DNA of 64,000 bases from Pirellulales bacterium (GTDB taxonomy: Bacteria > Planctomycetota > Planctomycetia > Pirellulales > PALSA-1355), in assembly GCA_963733035.1 (NCBI GenBank), contig CAVTBU010000006.1:256001-320000 (forward strand). The letters run 5' to 3'. The notes under the pieces were generated by a model, which ran no database searches, was not told the DNA's origin, and saw only the letters and a list, made by a program, of their open reading frames with translations. The translations under genes were made by a program, and so were the position numbers. The stretch's first letter is position 1. Each line of letters starts with the position of its first letter. Positions 6,190-12,483 of this stretch are shown here, one piece after another.

Positions 6190-6280
6190 GGGTCGGTAGC
6201 GGAGACGCGGGCACCATGCGCAGCATGGTCGGCGGTGGCCTGAAAAGCCGCAGACGAGGATTCGAGCGCCTCCCGACCCA
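6190..6280 (+). tRNA. tRNA-Phe(GAA)-like, degenerate, with hairpin insertion between D and anticodon arms
   Basis: GGGTCGG/CCGACCC-A acceptor; GTGGC-CTGAAAA-GCCGC anticodon arm; TTCGA loop. Confidence 0.6.
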
Positions 6281-6283
6281 CTG

Positions 6284-6368
6284 CGCCGGGCACCGACCGC
6301 AGGTTGGTCGGCGCGACACTCAGACTGTCGTGCCGTAAGGCGTGGGAGTTCGAGTCTCCCCTTGGTCA
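6284..6368 (+). tRNA. tRNA-Leu(CAG) remnant; 5' half replaced by hairpin insertion
   Basis: CGACA-CTCAGAC-TGTCG anticodon arm, long variable arm, GGGAG-TTCGAGT-CTCCC T arm, CTTGGTC-A end; no clean 5' acceptor strand. Confidence 0.6.
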
Positions 6369-6402
6369 CTGAACTGTTGGCGGGCAAGAACCCGTTGAAC
6401 GA

Positions 6403-6471
6403 CGCAGGCGAGCCAGTGCTCAGCTGGGCCTCATAAGCCCGGACCGTCGGGTGCGACACCCGAACCTGCTA
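6403..6471 (+). tRNA. tRNA-Met/Ile2(CAT)-like, degenerate D arm
   Basis: GCAGG/CCTGC acceptor; TGGGC-CTCATAA-GCCCG anticodon arm; TCGGG-TGCGACA-CCCGA T arm. Confidence 0.55.
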
Positions 6472-6556
6472 CTAGCAACTGAGGCCGCCGAGCGATTAGC
6501 GAGGATGAAGACCGAAGGCGGTAGTCATCAGACAAGCCGCCGCGCAGCAGACATTT

Positions 6557-6630
6557 GGCCGGGTACGCAAACTGGCAAAGCGACGAGGTCGAGAGCCTCG
6601 TGTTTGTGAGTTCGACTCTCACTCCGGTCA
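6557..6630 (+). tRNA. tRNA-Leu(GAG)-like with short variable region
   Basis: GGCCGGG/TCCGGTC-A; CGAGG-TCGAGAG-CCTCG; GTGAG-TTCGACT-CTCAC. Confidence 0.7.
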
Positions 6631-6635
6631 CTGAC

Positions 6636-6708
6636 GATCCCGTGGTCCAACGGCTAAGACGCCTGGATGACACCCAGGAAACAGATGGTTCAACTCCATC
6701 CGGGATCA
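6636..6708 (+). tRNA. tRNA-Val(GAC)
   Basis: GATCCCG/CGGGATC-A; CCTGG-ATGACAC-CCAGG; GATGG-TTCAACT-CCATC. Confidence 0.8.
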
Positions 6709-6733
6709 CTTTGCAACCGAGTTGCGCAGCGAA

Positions 6734-7115
6734 TCAGTCGGACATCGTTGACGAAAGTCGAGCGGCGAGCTTTCTGCCACACCAGGCTGCAACAGCCATC
6801 GGAATCGCTGCAGCAGCAAATTGAATCGGCATCACGATTGACAACGGTCCAAGGCCCGACGGATCCGGCTCAAAGAGCGTGAGCAGGTACACGACGATAA
6901 ACGCAGCCCCACAAACCATGCCAAGCAGGACTCCCTGAGAGGTGAGGAGTCCTACTAGATAATGCGATCGAACTTGCCGTTACGACAAGGTTCCATTCGC
7001 CATCGTCCGGTGAAATACGCCAGAATCCACCGACAAGGCAAATAGCCGTCACGGCAACGAACAGAGTTCGCAAGTTGAACTGTGACCGTGACTGTAGCTC
7101 GTTGTCTCCACCCAT
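6734..7115 (-). CDS. Small membrane protein (probable frameshift near 6960)
   Basis: N-terminal QFNLRTLFVAVTAICL hydrophobic motif, continued in another frame by TM segments ending at 6734. Confidence 0.45.
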
Positions 7116-7182
7116 GATCGCCATTATACGGTACGACTTCTGGTTCAGGGCACCACGACAGAACACCGTTTACGTCGCAATT

Positions 7183-7253
7183 GGGCTGCTCGTCCAACGG
7201 GAAGACGCCTGGCTTGCAACCAGGAAATCGGGGTTCGACTCCCCGGCGGTCCA
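7183..7253 (+). tRNA. tRNA-Ala(TGC)
   Basis: GGGCTGC/GCGGTCC-A with G3:U70; CCTGG-CTTGCAA-CCAGG; GGTTCGACTCC. Confidence 0.88.
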
Positions 7254-7264
7254 CTGAACAACAC

Positions 7265-7352
7265 GGGCTCATGGTCCAAAGGGAAGACATCAGGCTGGCA
7301 GTCTGACCAGTGTCTATTGGAAATGCGGCGGGTTCAATTCCAGGTGGGTCCA
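7265..7352 (+). tRNA. tRNA-Ala(GGC)-like with insertion in variable region
   Basis: GGGCTCA/TGGGTCC-A with G3:U70; TCAGG-CTGGCAG-TCTGA; ~20-nt variable region; weak T stem. Confidence 0.6.
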
Positions 7353-7375
7353 CTCATCAATCATGGAGACGTGAA

Positions 7376-7612
7376 ATGGCCGATTCTGTGTTGATCCGGT
7401 TCGTCGGCGAAAGAGGGAAAGCACATCACTTTTTGAAGCTTGGCCCGGTAGAGGTTTGGAACCCGCCGGAGCGTGAGTTTCAGGGTGGCGACGAAATCAG
7501 GGTGCAGATTCGCCCGAATGCCTTAAACCCAGATTGCGTGGACCTGACATTTGACGATGGACAATACGCGATTGAAGTTCCGAAGGATTTCTTCGTGATC
7601 GTTGAGGAATGA
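7376..7612 (+). CDS. Hypothetical protein (78 aa)
   Basis: GGAG RBS, ATG, plausible globular sequence between tRNA genes. Confidence 0.55.
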   Translation: MADSVLIRFVGERGKAHHFLKLGPVEVWNPPEREFQGGDEIRVQIRPNALNPDCVDLTFDDGQYAIEVPKDFFVIVEE

Positions 7613-7705
7613 AATGGAAGGTAGATGCTATGGCAGCGGCGAGGGACTGCGTTAGGCTCCGAGTCACGAGGGATTGTTTTATCCGTTGTTTTGAGGAGCT
7701 CAATC

Positions 7706-8884
7706 ATGGCCACTCGACCGCAAGACTGCAGCACAACGAAGCCAGTACTGTTCCTGGGTCTCGAATTAGGGCAGCGAACCTGGAAGTTGGGGTTCACCGT
7801 GGGTTTGGGTCAGAAGCCGCGGCGACGTGAGATCGCTGCCGGTTGCATTCAGGCACTGAAACGAGAGATCAATGAGAGTAAGCAACGTTTTGGTCTGCCT
7901 GCGGATGTGGAGGTGATTAGCTGTTACGAGGCAGGCCGTGATGGGTTTTGGCTGCATCGTTGGCTGGTGTCTGAGAACGTCACAAACTTGGTGGTTGACT
8001 CGTCTAGCATTCAAGTGCCGCGGCGGCAGCGACGGGCCAAGACCGATCGTCTGGATTTGGAACAATTGTTGACCATGTTGGTGCGCTGGCATCAGGGCGA
8101 GTCGAAAGTCTGGAGCGTGGTGACGGTGCCGAGTGAAGCGGAAGAGGACGTTCGGCATTTGCATCGCGAGTTGGAAACGCTGCGGGCGGAACAGACCAGC
8201 CACATCAATCGAATCAAGAGGCTGTTGATCGGTTGCGGCGTGGTGATTGATGTGAACCGCTGGCTACCGAAACGGCTCAAAGCAATACGGCTTTGGAATG
8301 GCTCGCCGTTGACCAGCGATTTGCGGCAACGGGTATTGCGGGAGTTCGAGCGGATGCAGGTGGTCAATCGACAGGTTCGCGAGCTGGAAAAGGAGCGTGC
8401 CGCCCGGATTCGCAGCAACGAAACTGACAAGAGCGTCGCCCAGGTGCGGACGTTGTTGGGCGTGAAGGGCATCGGCGTCAACAGCGCGTGGATGTACGTG
8501 CAGGAGGTGTTTGGCTGGCGAAAGATCAAGAATCGTCGTCAATTGGGTGCGCTCGTGGGGCTGACCGGCAGTCCGTATAGCAGCGGCAACTTGGAGCGCG
8601 ATCAGGGAATTACAAAGGCTGGAAACCGCCGGATGCGAACAATGGCTGTCGAAATCGCCTGGGGATGGTTGGCATTCCAACCCGGCAGCGATCTGAGCCG
8701 TTGGTATCACGATCGATTCGCGGCCGGAAACAAGCGTCTTCGTCGCATTGGAATTGTGGCGCTGGCAAGAAAGCTGTTGGTGGAGTTGTGGAAATACCTG
8801 GAGACCGGCGTGCCGCCTTGCAACGCGGAGCTGACCGAGTGGGAGGACAAGATTCACTACACCCCTTCCCTTACGCCGGCGTAG
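7706..8884 (+). CDS. IS110-family transposase/recombinase
   Basis: GAGGAG RBS; RuvC-like GLELG / CYEAG / AKTDRLD; C-terminal GIG...YSSG...GITKAGN...VALARKL. Confidence 0.93.
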   Translation: MATRPQDCSTTKPVLFLGLELGQRTWKLGFTVGLGQKPRRREIAAGCIQALKREINESKQRFGLPADVEVISCYEAGRDGFWLHRWLVSENVTNLVVDSSSIQVPRRQRRAKTDRLDLEQLLTMLVRWHQGESKVWSVVTVPSEAEEDVRHLHRELETLRAEQTSHINRIKRLLIGCGVVIDVNRWLPKRLKAIRLWNGSPLTSDLRQRVLREFERMQVVNRQVRELEKERAARIRSNETDKSVAQVRTLLGVKGIGVNSAWMYVQEVFGWRKIKNRRQLGALVGLTGSPYSSGNLERDQGITKAGNRRMRTMAVEIAWGWLAFQPGSDLSRWYHDRFAAGNKRLRRIGIVALARKLLVELWKYLETGVPPCNAELTEWEDKIHYTPSLTPA

Positions 8885-8889
8885 CGATT

Positions 8890-9125
8890 GGATCGGTGCG
8901 AGTATGGAGCGTCTGAACGACTGACGTCGAGACTGGAAAGCGACCGAGTATCCGGCGGGTACGAGTTAGGCTCACCGAAAGGTAGATGGGATCGCTTTCA
9001 TTATGGCTTCCCGAGAGCGTCCAGGACGCATAGGGCATAGGGTGATCGGCGATGATGCCGGCACGGATAGAAGCTAGTCGTTGGCCTCGGCCACAACGAT
9101 CAGCGGAAGCCGCCAGTCATGACGT
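8890..9125 (+). ncRNA. Putative bridge RNA/seekRNA of the IS (boundaries approximate)
   Basis: Two stem-flanked internal loops carrying matches to the target (GTATCCGGC, AAGGTAG) and to the donor junction (ATAGAAG, GGCAT). Confidence 0.8.
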
Positions 9126-9336
9126 TGAACCGACAGAAGAAGTGTTTTGAGGAATGGCAGGACAAATGAATGTGCATCCCAGCACGGCTCCAGCCGCGGC
9201 GTGCGGCCAGAGCCGTCACGGAATCATTCACCCGCCCTGACCTGGCTATCCCTTGTTGGGTTGCTCTTCAGCAGAGCTCAACTCCGTTTCACCAGGCAGG
9301 CGAAAGTATATCACGACTCAACGTTGGATGAGGAGC

Positions 9337-9342
9337 TTGACA
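9337..9342 (+). promoter_or_regulatory. -35 box (TTGACA) of predicted circle-junction promoter
   Basis: 17 nt upstream of GATGCT, which forms only when the right end joins the left end. Confidence 0.6.
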
Positions 9343-9456
9343 GGTGCGCATCCATAGAAGCCGGATACGGTTGGCCGGGCCGCTCTGCTAAGGCGGTTCC
9401 CGCTCGTCGGGATGAGGGTTCGAATCCCTTGCCTTCCGCTCGTGAACGATACGTGA

Positions 9457-9529
9457 GCCTCGATGGTGAAACGGACGATCACTCCTTGCTTCTAACAAGG
9501 CATTCCGGGTTCGAATCCTGGTCGGGGCA
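9457..9529 (+). tRNA. tRNA-Arg(TCT)
   Basis: GCCTCGA/TCGGGGC-A; CCTTG-CTTCTAA-CAAGG; GGTTCGAATCC. Confidence 0.85.
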
Positions 9530-9555
9530 TTTTTGAGGAATACGACAATATATAT

Positions 9556-9630
9556 GGCGTCCGTGGTGTAGCGGTTTCTGCACGTCTGGCTGTGAACCAG
9601 AAGGTGGCGGTTCAACTCCGCTCGGACACC
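9556..9630 (+). tRNA. tRNA-His(GTG)
   Basis: G-1 and C73; TCTGG-CTGTGAA-CCAGA; GGTTCAACTCC. Confidence 0.85.
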
Positions 9631-9647
9631 CTGAAAGGAAGTGAAGC

Positions 9648-10244
9648 ATGGTCGCAAAGGTACTTGAACATCCAACGCTGGTGCTCAACCGCAACTGGCA
9701 GCCGGTGAACGTGGCCACGGTGGCCCGGGCGCTGGTGCTGTTGTGGAACGACTCGGCTCGCGTGGTGGACCCGGCGGACTACCGGCTCTACACCTGGGCC
9801 GATTGGTCGGAGCTGCGCCCGGACGAAGGCGAGCGGTTCATCCAGGCCGTGCGGCTGCGGCTGCGCGTGCCCGAGGTGATCGTGCTGGCCGAGTACGACC
9901 GGCTGCCGACCGCCGCCGTGAGCTTCAGCCGCCGCAACGTATTCAAGCGGGACCATTGGGCCTGCCAGTACTGCGGCTGCCAGCCGGGCGGAGAGGAGTT
10001 GACGATCGATCACGTGATTCCGCGGTCGCACGGTGGCACCTCGACGTGGGAGAACTGCGTGCTCGCGTGCATCGGCTGCAACAAGCGAAAGGCCGACCGC
10101 ACGCCGCACCAGGCCGGTATGCGGCTCCACAAGGTGCCGGTCCGGCCGACGTGGAAGCCGATCTACGCCCGCGACAGCGTGCGGATCGAAAGCTGGTCGA
10201 AGTTTATCAGCGAGACGTACTGGAATGTTCCGCTGGAGAAGTAG
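9648..10244 (+). CDS. HNH endonuclease (McrA-like)
   Basis: LVLN...FSRRNVFKRDHWACQYCG...LTIDHVIPRSHGG...WENCVLACIGCNKRK. Confidence 0.93.
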   Translation: MVAKVLEHPTLVLNRNWQPVNVATVARALVLLWNDSARVVDPADYRLYTWADWSELRPDEGERFIQAVRLRLRVPEVIVLAEYDRLPTAAVSFSRRNVFKRDHWACQYCGCQPGGEELTIDHVIPRSHGGTSTWENCVLACIGCNKRKADRTPHQAGMRLHKVPVRPTWKPIYARDSVRIESWSKFISETYWNVPLEK

Positions 10245-10280
10245 CCAGTTGCCCGCAGGGCTTGTTCCTGCGGGCCTTAC

Positions 10281-10350
10281 ACGAGTGTGCTCCTGGGAGA
10301 GCAGTCAGCCTCCAAAACTGACGGACGGGGTTCGACTCCTCGCGCTCGTG
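10281..10350 (+). tRNA. tRNA-Trp(CCA)
   Basis: ACGAGTG/CGCTCGT-G; TCAG-c-CTCCAAA-a-CTGA; GGTTCGACTCC. Confidence 0.78.
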
Positions 10351-10353
10351 CTT

Positions 10354-10427
10354 GCCGACGTGGCTCGAAACAGAAAGGCACCTGTCTTGTAAACAGGTTG
10401 ATGCTGGTGCGAATCCAGTCGTCGGCT
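10354..10427 (+). tRNA. tRNA-Thr(TGT)
   Basis: GCCGACG/CGTCGGC-T; CCTGT-CTTGTAA-ACAGG; T loop TGCGAAT. Confidence 0.78.
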
Positions 10428-10438
10428 CTTAAGAGTTT

Positions 10439-10744
10439 TCAGCTTGTCGCAGGCCCGCTACGGGCGTCGTCGAGCATAGTCACTAAAGATCTTCGCAGAT
10501 CAGAACCGGGCTCCTGCAACCACCGATTGTCGTAACGCGCCAAATCTGTGGCGATGTTTGCCTCGGTGAACCACTCGCCGTCGCCACGAATTAAAGCTGG
10601 GACATTGTGCAATGCGTCCAAATAGTCGTGAACCTCGTCAATTGCGATCTGCTCTCCGTAGCGTATCCGCATCCGCAAATGCGTGATCGCTCGTTCCAGA
10701 AATACCAGATAAACGTCGGCGTCGTCTTGCGGCAGGCGGAGCAT
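10439..10744 (-). CDS. Hypothetical protein (101 aa)
   Basis: Plausible helical protein filling an inter-tRNA spacer on the opposite strand. Confidence 0.5.
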   Translation of the reverse strand: MLRLPQDDADVYLVFLERAITHLRMRIRYGEQIAIDEVHDYLDALHNVPALIRGDGEWFTEANIATDLARYDNRWLQEPGSDLRRSLVTMLDDARSGPATS

Positions 10745-10799
10745 GGCACATCGCAGTCACGGATTTCGTTTGGGAGAACTGCATTCATTGTAACGCTAT

Positions 10800-10871
10800 G
10801 GCCTGTGAGTGTGTGGGATCGCACGGCAGCCTCCGAAGCTGCAAGACCAGGTTCGATTCCTGGATGGGCTA
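10800..10871 (+). tRNA. tRNA-Arg(CCG)
   Basis: GGCCTGT/ATGGGCT-A; GCAGC-CTCCGAA-GCTGC; GGTTCGATTCC. Confidence 0.8.
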
Positions 10872-10883
10872 CTTGAACAATGC

Positions 10884-10956
10884 GTCTCGCGGGTGTGCCG
10901 GATGAGCACGGCAGTGTTCGAAACTGCAAGACGAGGTTCGATTCCTCGGCGAGGCA
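10884..10956 (+). tRNA. tRNA-Arg(TCG)
   Basis: GTCTCGC/GCGAGGC-A; GCAGT-GTTCGAA-ACTGC; GGTTCGATTCC. Confidence 0.8.
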
Positions 10957-11135
10957 CTGATAAGGCGACAGACTGAATGATCATGTTGCAAACAATCCTG
11001 ACAGCACTGAGACGAGCTCTGTTTAGCCAGCCTGTAGCCGGCGGGGTGACGGCGAAGCCACCGTCGGCAGAGGCCGTCGCGTGTGCGGTCGTTCATTCGA
11101 CGACTTCGGTGGATCGCAGCGAAGGGAGGCTTACC

Positions 11136-11621
11136 ATGAACGCAGCCTATGACAAACTATGCGAACACCTGACCAACCAGCACATCGGCTTTTGGTCGCG
11201 CAGCGAGGACCTGTCGATCTGCACGGACTTTCGGGGCGAGGTCGGCACGTACCGGATCTTCGCTCGGGTTGACGCTGATGACAGCTTGTTCCAGGTCTTC
11301 GGTCACTCGCCGGTTCGCGTTCCGCCAGGCTCGCGGCCGGCGATCGCCGAGGCCGTGGCGCGGATCAACTGCGGTCTGAAGGTCGGCAAGTTCGAGATGG
11401 ATTGTGACGAGGGCGAGCTGCGGTTTCAGGCGGCCCAGATTCTGCCCGACGACGATCTCGACGAGCAGACGATTCAGCGTCTGATTGGTACGACCATGTC
11501 GATGTTGAACATTTACCTCCCGGCCGTCCTGTCGGTCATCTACGGCAACGAACTGCCGAAGGATGCCGTCAGGCACGCAGAGCCCGGGCGGCAGCTGTCC
11601 GACGAAAACGAGCCGCGGTGA
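11136..11621 (+). CDS. YbjN-domain (T3SS-chaperone-like fold) protein; possible upstream start 10977
   Basis: GGGAGG RBS; VPPGSRPAIAEAVARINCGLKVGKFEMDCDEGELRF pattern. Confidence 0.75.
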   Translation: MNAAYDKLCEHLTNQHIGFWSRSEDLSICTDFRGEVGTYRIFARVDADDSLFQVFGHSPVRVPPGSRPAIAEAVARINCGLKVGKFEMDCDEGELRFQAAQILPDDDLDEQTIQRLIGTTMSMLNIYLPAVLSVIYGNELPKDAVRHAEPGRQLSDENEPR

Positions 11622-11641
11622 GGCCTGATCACCGCGCATTT

Positions 11642-11714
11642 GTCCTCGGAGTGTGCCGGATTCGCATCCGACCCTGCGAAGGTCGAGGACCAGGTTCAAT
11701 TCCTGGCGGGGACA
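11642..11714 (+). tRNA. tRNA-Arg(GCG)
   Basis: GTCCTCG/CGGGGAC-A; CGACC-CTGCGAA-GGTCG; GGTTCAATTCC. Confidence 0.82.
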
Positions 11715-11747
11715 TTGAGGAACATTTAGAACTAAGCGAAGTGGTCA

Positions 11748-12407
11748 GTGGCACGCACAATCGGAAGCATCACGATGACTGAACTTGAACACCTTTCATT
11801 TGAGCAACTGTTGGACGGGTGCGAAAAGGGACTCAAAAACGCGCAGTCACTGGCCGCTGAGGCAGGGCTCCTCTACGAACATAAGTACTTTGCACGGACG
11901 TACGCTCTTAGTCACCTAGCAAGAGAAGAACTCGGCAAAGTCATGATGCTATATCACGCCGCCATCGACGTCCTCGTTGGTGCGACCGTTGACTGGAAGA
12001 AGCTGAGCCGACGGTTCCGAAATCACCAAGAGAAGATCATAAACGATCAAATGTTCCAATCGCACACGATGGATCTCTTGAAGGCAGCTGAATTGCTAAC
12101 GGAGCAAGAGCAGGGTCAATTGGCGGCAGCGCAGCATCTCCAATTCACGAAACAGGCGATCGCGTATCGTAATCGCAGAAAAAACGCGTCCCTCTACGTG
12201 TCCTGGGAGGATCTTGCCTTTCAGATGCCCTCTGAGGTATTCACCGAGCAACAAGCGTATCGAATCTGGATGATTGCCAAATTTGCATGCGACGACTTCA
12301 CTCGGATAGTTGAGTCACTTAGAAAATGGGGTGCCCTGGAGCGAGAGCAGTTACTCGGAGTCTGGAAGCCTGTCATCGAACAGATACAAAGCCTCCTGAA
12401 GGAATAA
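11748..12407 (+). CDS. AbiV-family (HEPN) abortive-infection-like protein
   Basis: NAQSLAAEAGLL, YALSHLAREELGK, FRNHQEK and RRKNASLYV motifs; lower GC. Confidence 0.75.
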   Translation: MARTIGSITMTELEHLSFEQLLDGCEKGLKNAQSLAAEAGLLYEHKYFARTYALSHLAREELGKVMMLYHAAIDVLVGATVDWKKLSRRFRNHQEKIINDQMFQSHTMDLLKAAELLTEQEQGQLAAAQHLQFTKQAIAYRNRRKNASLYVSWEDLAFQMPSEVFTEQQAYRIWMIAKFACDDFTRIVESLRKWGALEREQLLGVWKPVIEQIQSLLKE

Positions 12408-12411
12408 CAGC

Positions 12412-12483
12412 GACGCTGAAGCCAGACGGCATGGCGACTGCCTGCAAAGCAGTTTTTAGCGGGTTCGACTCCCGCCGGCGTCT
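12412..12483 (+). tRNA. tRNA-Cys(GCA)
   Basis: GACGCTG/CGGCGTC-T (U73); ACTGC-CTGCAAA-GCAGT; GGTTCGACTCC. Confidence 0.85.

Follow-up and report, generated by a model that had tools for sequence, protein, structure and literature searches.

An IS110-Family Element in an Array tRNA-Ser Gene Carries a Predicted Bispecific Bridge RNA That Matches Its Target and Its Ends

In a 64,000-nucleotide stretch of DNA from a Pirellulales bacterium (contig CAVTBU010000006.1, positions 256,001 to 320,000; the whole stretch is referred to as the window), an IS110-family insertion sequence interrupts a tRNA-Ser(GCT) gene, and the region 3' of its recombinase gene very probably encodes a bispecific bridge RNA (a long seekRNA) that guides the recombinase to this tRNA gene. 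One loop of the predicted RNA carries a guide for each side of the target, a second loop carries a strand corresponding to each end of the element, and in relatives inserted at many different targets all four guides and the dinucleotide core co-vary with the flanks and ends of the individual copies. The region had been singled out in an initial annotation made from the letters of the window alone, and the eight strings quoted there all lie where it had placed them.

Results

An IS110-Family Element Interrupts a tRNA-Ser Gene

The insertion sequence is 1736 bp long (7625-9360, + strand), counted with one copy of the core, AG. At the left junction, GGAAGGT-AG-ATGCTATGG (7616-7633), the 5' part of the tRNA-Ser(GCT) gene (7616-7624, + strand), which consists of the left target GGAAGGT and the core (7623-7624), runs into the left end of the element, ATGCTATGG (7625-7633). 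The right junction, CCATAGA-AG-CCGGATAC (9352-9368), is made up of the right end CCATAGA (9352-9358), AG (9359-9360), and the right target CCGGATAC (9361-9368), with which the 3' part of the gene begins (9361-9439, + strand). When the flanks are joined in silico, ARAGORN identifies an 88-nt tRNA-Ser(gct) with a normal cloverleaf, and the gene is therefore interrupted after base 9. We also compared the window with metagenome contigs from four public sequencing runs (X1, X2, X3, and X4). An empty site with a single AG is present in X1 and X2 contigs, where GGAAGGT stands directly before the sequence that starts at 9359 (AGCCGGATAC...), in other sequence contexts, and near-variants of the uninterrupted target occur in contigs of X1 and X3. 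The pre-insertion target proposed in the initial annotation, GGAAGGT-AG followed by the right flank, is thus borne out by the junctions, by in silico excision, and by the empty site, as is the identity of the target as a tRNA-Ser gene. The X1-X4 contigs contain neither a circle junction nor a joint across the element; one X3 contig has an odd joint of 8833 to 8923, with 88 other letters between.

The element is an intact IS110-family insertion sequence with an IS1111-style layout, that is, a short left end, the recombinase gene, and a long 3' non-coding region, in that order. Its subterminal inverted repeats, CTATGG/CCATAG, are perfect over 6 bp and match at 9/11 positions when extended. The recombinase gene (7706-8884, + strand) is preceded by a likely ribosome-binding site (GAGGAG at 7693, 8 nt upstream of the open reading frame) and encodes a 392-residue protein that scores 169.1 bits (cutoff 140) against the NCBIfam model NF033542 ("IS110 family RNA-guided transposase") and 45.9 bits (cutoff 21.3; E 7e-12) against Pfam PF02371; with Pfam PF01548 it reaches 22.8 bits, under the cutoff of 29. 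The family matches, the conserved carboxylates (E20, E75, D114, and D117), and Ser293-Gly294 agree with its earlier assignment to the IS110/IS1111 recombinases. Similarity to the solved IS621 and ISCro4 recombinases is weak and limited to the C-terminal domain (E about 1e-4), with the Ser-Gly of the catalytic loop aligned. Across 63 distinct proteins of the clade, E75, D114, D117, and S293 are invariant and G294 is kept in 62; as first carboxylate, 62 have Glu and one has Asp, and MAFFT aligns E20 to the first catalytic Asp of ISHvo10, ISEc45, and IS5708. The clade active site is thus E-E-D-D plus Ser, in which the carboxylate is kept but the residue differs from that in DEDD; the catalytic residues reported for IS621 are D11, E60, D102, D105, and S241 (Hiraizumi 2024, PMC11208158). 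Because identity to the named IS110-like elements in plasmid records (IS5708, ISEc45, ISSso6, IS1618, and ISHvo10) is at most 31%, we regard these proteins as a separate clade, which is probably new; it is IS1111-style by layout.

The 3' Region Holds Predicted Guides for the Target and for the Ends

The predicted bridge RNA is ~190 nt long (8931-9118, + strand, like all of its parts described here) and starts 47 nt after the stop codon. A closing stem, P0, in which GACTG (8931-8935) pairs with CAGTC (9114-9118), encloses both loops; its equivalent in the family is AAGGTC/GACCTT (helix 1). The first, or target, loop is bounded by the outer stem P1 (helix 2), the 5' strand of which (8936-8945) consists of GAAAGCGA (8936-8943) and CC and the 3' strand (8988-8999) of GG, a bulged A, and TCGCTTTC (8992-8999), and by the inner hairpin P2 (helix 3; 8958-8976; GGT-ac-GAG/CTCACC with the loop TTAGG); both P1 and P2 are found in the fold and in the family alignment. 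On the 5' side of P2 lies the right target guide, GTATCCGGC (8948-8956), reverse-complementary to the stretch 9360-9368, which comprises the core G and CCGGATAC. On its 3' side lies the left target guide, AAGGT plus the core AG (8979-8985), which is identical to the top strand of the left flank and core and continues into AT (8986-8987), the same two bases with which the left end starts.

The second, or donor, loop is closed by P3 (helix 4), in which GGCTTCC (9005-9011) pairs with GGAAGCC (9105-9111), so that the 3' strands of P3 and P0 together take up 9105-9118. This stem and the strings ATAGAAG and GGCAT are present as initially annotated, but the simple internal loop envisaged there is in fact a multi-branch junction, with P3 enclosing three hairpins: P3a (helix 5; 9017-9029; GCGTC C AG G GACGC), P4 (helix 6; 9042-9064; GTGATCGGC GATGAT GCCGGCAC), and P5 (helix 7; 9077-9100; seen in the fold). 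Its single strands are GGCAT (9034-9038), which can pair with the left end ATGCT with one G.T wobble and corresponds to the right donor guide in Durrant's nomenclature, and ATAGA plus the core AG (9067-9073), which is identical to the right end plus core and corresponds to the left donor guide.

Folding of 8885-9130, a check proposed along with the initial annotation, recovers both outer stems. The minimum free energy is -93.2 kcal/mol, compared with -82.9 ± 4.45 kcal/mol for shuffled sequences (z -2.31; 3 of 200 shuffles were as good); the minimum-free-energy structure pairs part of the first loop, and the centroid structure keeps this loop open. No Rfam family matched 8885-9360 at E values up to 1, the only hits nearby being tRNAs and weak chance matches. 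The ~220 nt that separate the RNA structure from the right-end TTGACA (9119-9336) are not conserved in relatives, and an open reading frame at 9147-9536 that extends out of the element is probably no gene.

The Target Guides of Relatives Track Their Own Flanks

Matches of 5-9 nt are short, and the genome holds AAGGTAG 239 times and GTATCCGGC or its complement 82 times, as might be expected if the agreement between loops and flanks had arisen by accident or as a side effect of repeats surrounding the element. Relatives inserted elsewhere bear directly on this point. From species-representative genomes we collected 79 loci with recombinases 44-58% identical to that of the window; their hosts are Gemmatimonadota, Acidobacteriota, one Pirellulales metagenome-assembled genome, and many Burkholderiales. 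A block matching window positions 9027-9079 follows the gene at 75 of 81 loci (the two copies in the window's genome included). Left ends conform to AT[G/A/C]CTATG and right ends to [C/T]CATAGA-AG, and this conservation allowed both ends, along with 14 nt or more of flank, to be called in 49 loci. The MAFFT columns that lie under the window's right target guide were then compared with the reverse complement of each locus' own right flank, pairs of loci with guides differing at three or more positions serving as non-cognate controls. The run of matching bases is at least 7 in 38 of 49 loci, as against 1 of 2118 non-cognate pairs, with the individual run lengths distributed as 3 (2 loci), 4 (2), 5 (1), 6 (6), 7 (5), 8 (9), 9 (23), and 10 (1). 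The set contains 32 different right-guide strings, 27 of them with at least one locus at 7 or more; when each string is represented by a single locus, 26 of the 32 pass, and none of 2000 permutations exceeded 6 or reached the observed value. The left target guide equals the flank at position -1 in 47/49, at -2 in 34/49, and at -3 in 17/49 of these loci.

A second set of 80 loci (47-68% identical) comes from metagenomes; here, RNA regions and guides were located with nhmmer and hmmalign using the family alignment, and an RNA region was found downstream of the gene in 62 of the 80 (nhmmer). The left guide plus core shares an identical run of 7 or more with the flank (7 of the last 8 positions or more) in 26/47 loci and in none of 978 non-cognate pairs; counted by distinct combinations, 14/32 pass, with 26 guide strings represented. 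A right-guide run of at least 7 is seen in 13/37 loci (2/1270 non-cognate pairs), right-end calling being cruder in this set.

The core, initially annotated as AG, changes in concert where it differs. In L005, the single genome locus whose core is GG, this dinucleotide stands at the two junctions as well as in the two loops, the donor strand reading ATAGAGG, and three metagenome loci (L093, L102, and L127) have CG in the target loop and at the junction, accompanied by a donor strand ATAGA-CG in L093 and L127; in L102, CG appears in the first loop only. With 32 plus 26 distinct guide strings each tracking its own flank, with non-cognate pairs reaching such lengths in only 1/2118 and 0/978 cases, and with the permutation controls rejecting it, we give coincidence practically no weight. 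It is this tracking of each relative's own flanks, and not the modest fold z-score, that excludes chance, and the covariation test suggested in the initial annotation has thereby come out in favor of guidance: loops co-vary with flanks and ends across relatives at many targets.

The Donor Loop Follows the Ends of the Element

A different possibility is that only the first stem-loop (~8936-8999) is a functional guide and that the second region serves in processing or as a scaffold, the protein itself reading the subterminal repeats and the target sequence that flanks the donor, without any pairing between RNA and ends. The seekRNAs of ISEc11, ISPa11, and ISKpn4 are 70-100 nt long, and for ISEc11 a short seekRNA has been reported to suffice, with the donor requiring flanking target sequence (Siddiquee 2024, PMC11187229); the present element does carry subterminal repeats (CTATGG/CCATAG); and in the genome set GGATAGAAG is invariant in the donor strand wherever the ends read CATAGA-AG, so that the constant strand ATAGAAG is uninformative where the ends are constant. 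In the genome set, the donor 5' strand has T, C, or G opposite an A, G, or C, respectively, at left-end position 3 in 47/49 loci, and the other two have a G.T wobble there, giving Watson-Crick or wobble pairing in 49/49. The left end varies more in the metagenome set (AA.., AC.., AT..), and the donor 5' strand changes in step with it, pairing with position 2 in 46/51 loci (T-A 21, A-T 19, C-G 3, G-C 1, wobble 2) and with position 3 in 43/51, so that positions 2 and 3 co-vary with this strand through four Watson-Crick types. As noted above, the second-loop core also shifts to GG or CG together with the core at the junction. Such covariation of the left end and core with the second loop is what pairing between RNA and donor predicts, and we consider it unlikely, by a wide margin, that the guide is confined to the first stem-loop.

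The target loop also reaches into the element: the two bases that follow its core equal the start of the left end in 32/47 metagenome loci (AA 17, AT 13, AC 2), the disagreements possibly stemming in part from end-calling. Separately, the RNA region of a Cupriavidus locus (L051:4152-4352) ends ...GGCACGGATAG/ATGCTATG..., a left end following without interruption on the DNA that codes for the donor loop. This DNA imitates the right end plus core, and recombination seems here to have taken place at guide-coding DNA of the element itself.

Conserved Helices Point to an RNA Made from the Recombinase Strand

RNAalifold applied to 39 non-redundant regions predicts 23 pairs, of which 18 show compensatory changes. 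In a seven-helix model (P0, P1, P2, P3, P3a, P4, and P5) drawn from one row of the alignment and the RNAalifold prediction, 92.2% of cells are paired, compared with 28-42% when the partners are slid, a control that favors any structure drawn from a member sequence. Both sides change in 24 of 41 pairs; shuffles gave 11.4 ± 2.1, and none of 500 attained the observed figure. Compensatory changes occur in all seven helices, with changes on both sides in 7/8 pairs of P1 and compensatory ones in 5/6 pairs of P2. A one-column shift in the MAFFT alignment causes the stems of the window copy to be scored partly as "broken"; in the sequence itself they are perfect. G-U pairs are frequent (e.g., 10 at columns 23/87 and 11 at columns 100/241). 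Since the opposite strand would have A-C at these places, it is the strand of the recombinase gene (+) that folds.

The region might, in principle, act as DNA, as single-stranded hairpins or protein-binding sites, instead of as a transcript, a view in keeping with the finding of no RNA run among those listed for the stretch and of no sigma-70-like promoter in the integrated copy. The tolerance of G-U pairs in the helices runs counter to it, as do the location of the region, 240 bp inside the right end and not at the end itself, and the experimental demonstration that the IS110 family is RNA-guided; the presence in each loop of one sense and one antisense strand, with respect to the target and to the ends, would be left unexplained. 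We judge it very improbable, even less probable than a guide restricted to the first stem-loop.

As to how a bridge RNA would be transcribed, a sigma-70 scan of the integrated copy found no promoter-like sites, and its two terminator-like sites are as many as expected by chance. TTGACA in the right end (9337-9342, + strand) is a candidate -35 element of a promoter that would be completed by TGCTAT in the left end (7626-7631) only in the circular form. In the relatives, TTGAC 16-18 nt from the right end and T[A/G]CTAT at left-end positions 2-7 are present in all 43 distinct junctions printed, and a sigma-70-like promoter would therefore form only in the circle. Such circle-specific promoters have been reported for IS1111-type elements (Siddiquee 2024, PMC11187229). 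The element points the same way as the surrounding tRNA genes, which makes read-through possible, and the RNA would be made from the circle junction promoter or by read-through of the tRNA array and then bound by the recombinase.

Observations That Do Not Fit

Several observations weigh against a bispecific guide RNA, or weaken individual lines of support for it. No RNA run is found among the public sequencing runs listed for this stretch, the first catalytic residue is Glu instead of Asp, the z-score of the single-sequence fold is modest (only -2.3), the window's P2 is weaker than that of relatives (6 bp with a 2-nt bulge), and the slid control and the right guides of the metagenome set, only 13/37 of which reach 7, have the limitations given above. 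Among the genome-set relatives, which are mostly Burkholderiales, agreement of the left guide with the flank extends no more than 1-2 nt past the core, position -3 being close to chance. The right-guide match falls short of 7 in 11 of the 49 genome loci. Six of these have runs of exactly 6; L041 has two mismatches, and L006 and L045 are equivocal cases. The right flank of L044 (1984-2160, Burkholderia) consists of an inverted piece of another copy's RNA region, namely its target-loop part in reverse complement, and we therefore regard this locus as a nested or inverted rearrangement. The clearest discrepancy is L060 (Cupriavidus lacunae), which occupies the type of target used by L061 (...TCTAG/GGTCTGTTC...) and has the right target guide of a different subgroup, ACAGTAAGA. 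L060 could have been guided in trans by the RNA of a co-resident relative; no matching relative is present among the loci fetched. Copies at unrelated targets with unchanged loops, which the initial annotation had named as the pattern that would speak against its reading, are accordingly limited to a few loci, namely L060 as the clear case, L041 with its two mismatches, and the rearranged L044.

Two Copies Occupy the Same tRNA-Ser Sequence in a Large tRNA Array

A second copy of the element is located 17 kb upstream (G000:C6:246354) and differs from that in the window at one base in the whole element. It is preceded by the same nine left bases and followed by the same right-hand tRNA sequence; the identity of the two loci ends directly left of the tRNA start (9 nt) and 66 nt to the right of the element. 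The target of the second copy (right flank G000:C6:248098-248200) agrees with the gene in the window as far as the T-loop sequence TTCGAATC, after which ~27 unrelated bases replace the 3' strand of the T stem before ACCTTCCGC. With the T arm disrupted, ARAGORN makes no tRNA call at this site, which is either a pseudo-tRNA or a tRNA gene whose T arm has acquired an insertion.

Both copies lie in an array of 44 tRNA genes on one strand (G000:C6:241456-268483), of which window positions 6190-12483 are the later part; genome-wide, ARAGORN finds 96 tRNA genes, 47 of them on contig C6, including these 44. The window's element sits between tRNA-Ala(GGC) and tRNA-Arg(TCT). The array is composed of two diverged, partly parallel sub-arrays (Leu-Leu-Val-(Thr)-Ala-Ala-[Ser::IS]-Arg...Arg-Cys). 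Since these sub-arrays are old, diverged paralogs while the elements are nearly identical, the two copies point to two separate insertions into the same 17-nt sequence, and the element to be a recent, site-specific mover. The housekeeping tRNA-Ser(GCT) gene (C5:700967) is intact and differs in sequence, the interrupted gene being a redundant array copy.

AG plus CCGGATAC (the core and right half of the target) occurs at 13 other sites in the genome, none of which is occupied and none of which matches the left guide; the right half alone is therefore evidently insufficient for this element. In the 79 empty sites that we reconstructed, a tRNA is obtained from the window's locus only: the second copy yields a tRNA-Ser-like pseudogene, and none of the 77 loci of relatives yields a tRNA. 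Outside the window, a lone left junction at G000:C5:2680631 (- strand) joins the nine 5' bases of tRNA-Ser to the first 10 bases of the left end and continues into sequence ~90% identical to the array gene that resembles the anticodon and variable arm of tRNA-Ser. The T arm, the element, and a tRNA call are all missing at this site, which looks like the scar of an old insertion that was followed by a deletion. Two more distant IS110-family recombinase genes (24-27% identical) are found at G000:C5:53807-54565 and C7:394414-395244.

The tRNA genes of the array are interspersed with a gene for an HNH endonuclease (PF01844, E 7e-15; window 9648-10244) and with one that is YbjN-like (10977-11621), and some of the tRNAs are oddly long (Cys, 92 nt; Ala(GGC), 89 nt). 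A small open reading frame at 7376-7612 (78 residues), which matches no Pfam family, stops four bases ahead of the interrupted tRNA-Ser gene. We also considered whether the left end might mimic the displaced tRNA sequence and so restore the gene, but its alignment to the tRNA is no better than that of shuffled sequences (z 0.9).

Discussion

The anatomy of the element, its target, the two independent insertions, the covariation of four guides and the core, and the conserved helices are all seen directly, and the recombination chemistry would be as in IS621 and ISEc11. By this analogy, a DEDD-type recombinase (here with E-E-D-D plus Ser293), loaded with a bridge RNA of ~190 nt, would bring together the circularized element (right end-AG-left end) and GGAAGGT-AG-CCGGATAC. 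At the donor junction, GGCAU would pair with the left end and AUAGA-AG would mirror the right end plus core; strand exchange would take place at the AG core; and the element would be inserted in one orientation into the target GGAAGGTAGCCGGATAC, after base 9 of the array tRNA-Ser(GCT), without target duplication.

RNA-guided recombinases of this kind were first described in 2024, and the present element is a natural bridge RNA system that can be read completely from sequence, from its four guides and core to a target with an empty site and two insertions. Its relatives amount to a specificity table, with more than 30 natural variants of the right guide, 26 of the left guide, and three cores (AG, GG, and CG). 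The known mechanism is left unchanged, and the system is what that mechanism leads one to expect; the novelties are modest and consist of a tRNA gene as target, Glu in place of the first Asp of DEDD, and the clade as such. A literature search, judged by titles and the beginnings of abstracts and hence not proof of absence, turned up no IS110-family element aimed at a tRNA gene.

It is possible, and we put this forward only tentatively, that the relatives, which come from Gemmatimonadota, Acidobacteriota, Pirellulales, Burkholderiales, and many metagenome contigs, represent an uncharacterized lineage of bridge recombinases that is widespread in soil bacteria and follows rules of its own, the window's member having specialized on the array tRNA-Ser. 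As this member is oriented in the direction in which the array is transcribed, its RNA might then be expressed by read-through and processed along with tRNA precursors. The rules of the lineage would comprise the E-E-D-D active site, a bridge RNA that is encoded 3' of the gene and held shut by an outer stem, loops that both have their guides in reversed order, a right target guide of 8-9 nt, and a left guide that continues through the core into two bases of the left end, i.e., a built-in handshake guide.

Compared with IS621 (Durrant 2024; Hiraizumi 2024, PMC11208158; Protein Data Bank 8wt6), the RNA is likewise bispecific, with a target and a donor loop, each of which has one strand for the top and one for the bottom strand of the DNA; a 2-nt core is likewise common to target, donor, and all guides; the active site again combines DEDD-type residues, the first of them Glu in the present case, with a serine; and a target-loop strand runs 2 nt into the donor in the manner of a handshake guide (the 32/47 loci mentioned above). 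The IS621 RNA, as described, is encoded upstream of the gene, and within its target loop the left guide precedes the right one. Here, in contrast, the RNA is encoded 3' of the gene and the order of guides is reversed in both loops, the core is AG where IS621 has CT, the guide for the right side of the target has 8 nt plus one core base as opposed to 4-7, the donor region is a multi-branch junction, and protein similarity is confined to the C-terminal domain (E 3e-4).

In its layout the element follows the IS1111-type elements (ISEc11, ISPa11, and ISKpn4), whose seekRNAs are reported to be encoded downstream of the gene with the top-strand match first (Siddiquee 2024, PMC11187229) and for which bridge RNAs have been predicted in the right end of 93% of elements (Durrant 2024, PMC11208160). 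According to these reports, they share with the present element the long downstream non-coding region and the order of the strands, the one complementary to the top strand lying 5' of that complementary to the bottom strand, with the matches overlapping at the insertion point; the right-then-left order of guides given in the initial annotation is thus correct and, having been published for IS1111-type seekRNAs (Siddiquee 2024, PMC11187229), is not new. Subterminal inverted repeats, a -35-like TTGACA in the right end that meets the left end only in the circle, and the retargeting of relatives through changes in the loops are further points of agreement. The differences lie in the protein, which has 392 residues here and ~355-390 in relatives, against the 330-350 stated for the IS1111 subgroup (PMC11187229), and in which the first carboxylate is Glu; in the perfect repeat, which is only 6 bp long (9/11 when extended), compared with the 7-17 bp given for the subterminal repeats of that subgroup; and in the target, which here is a tRNA gene.

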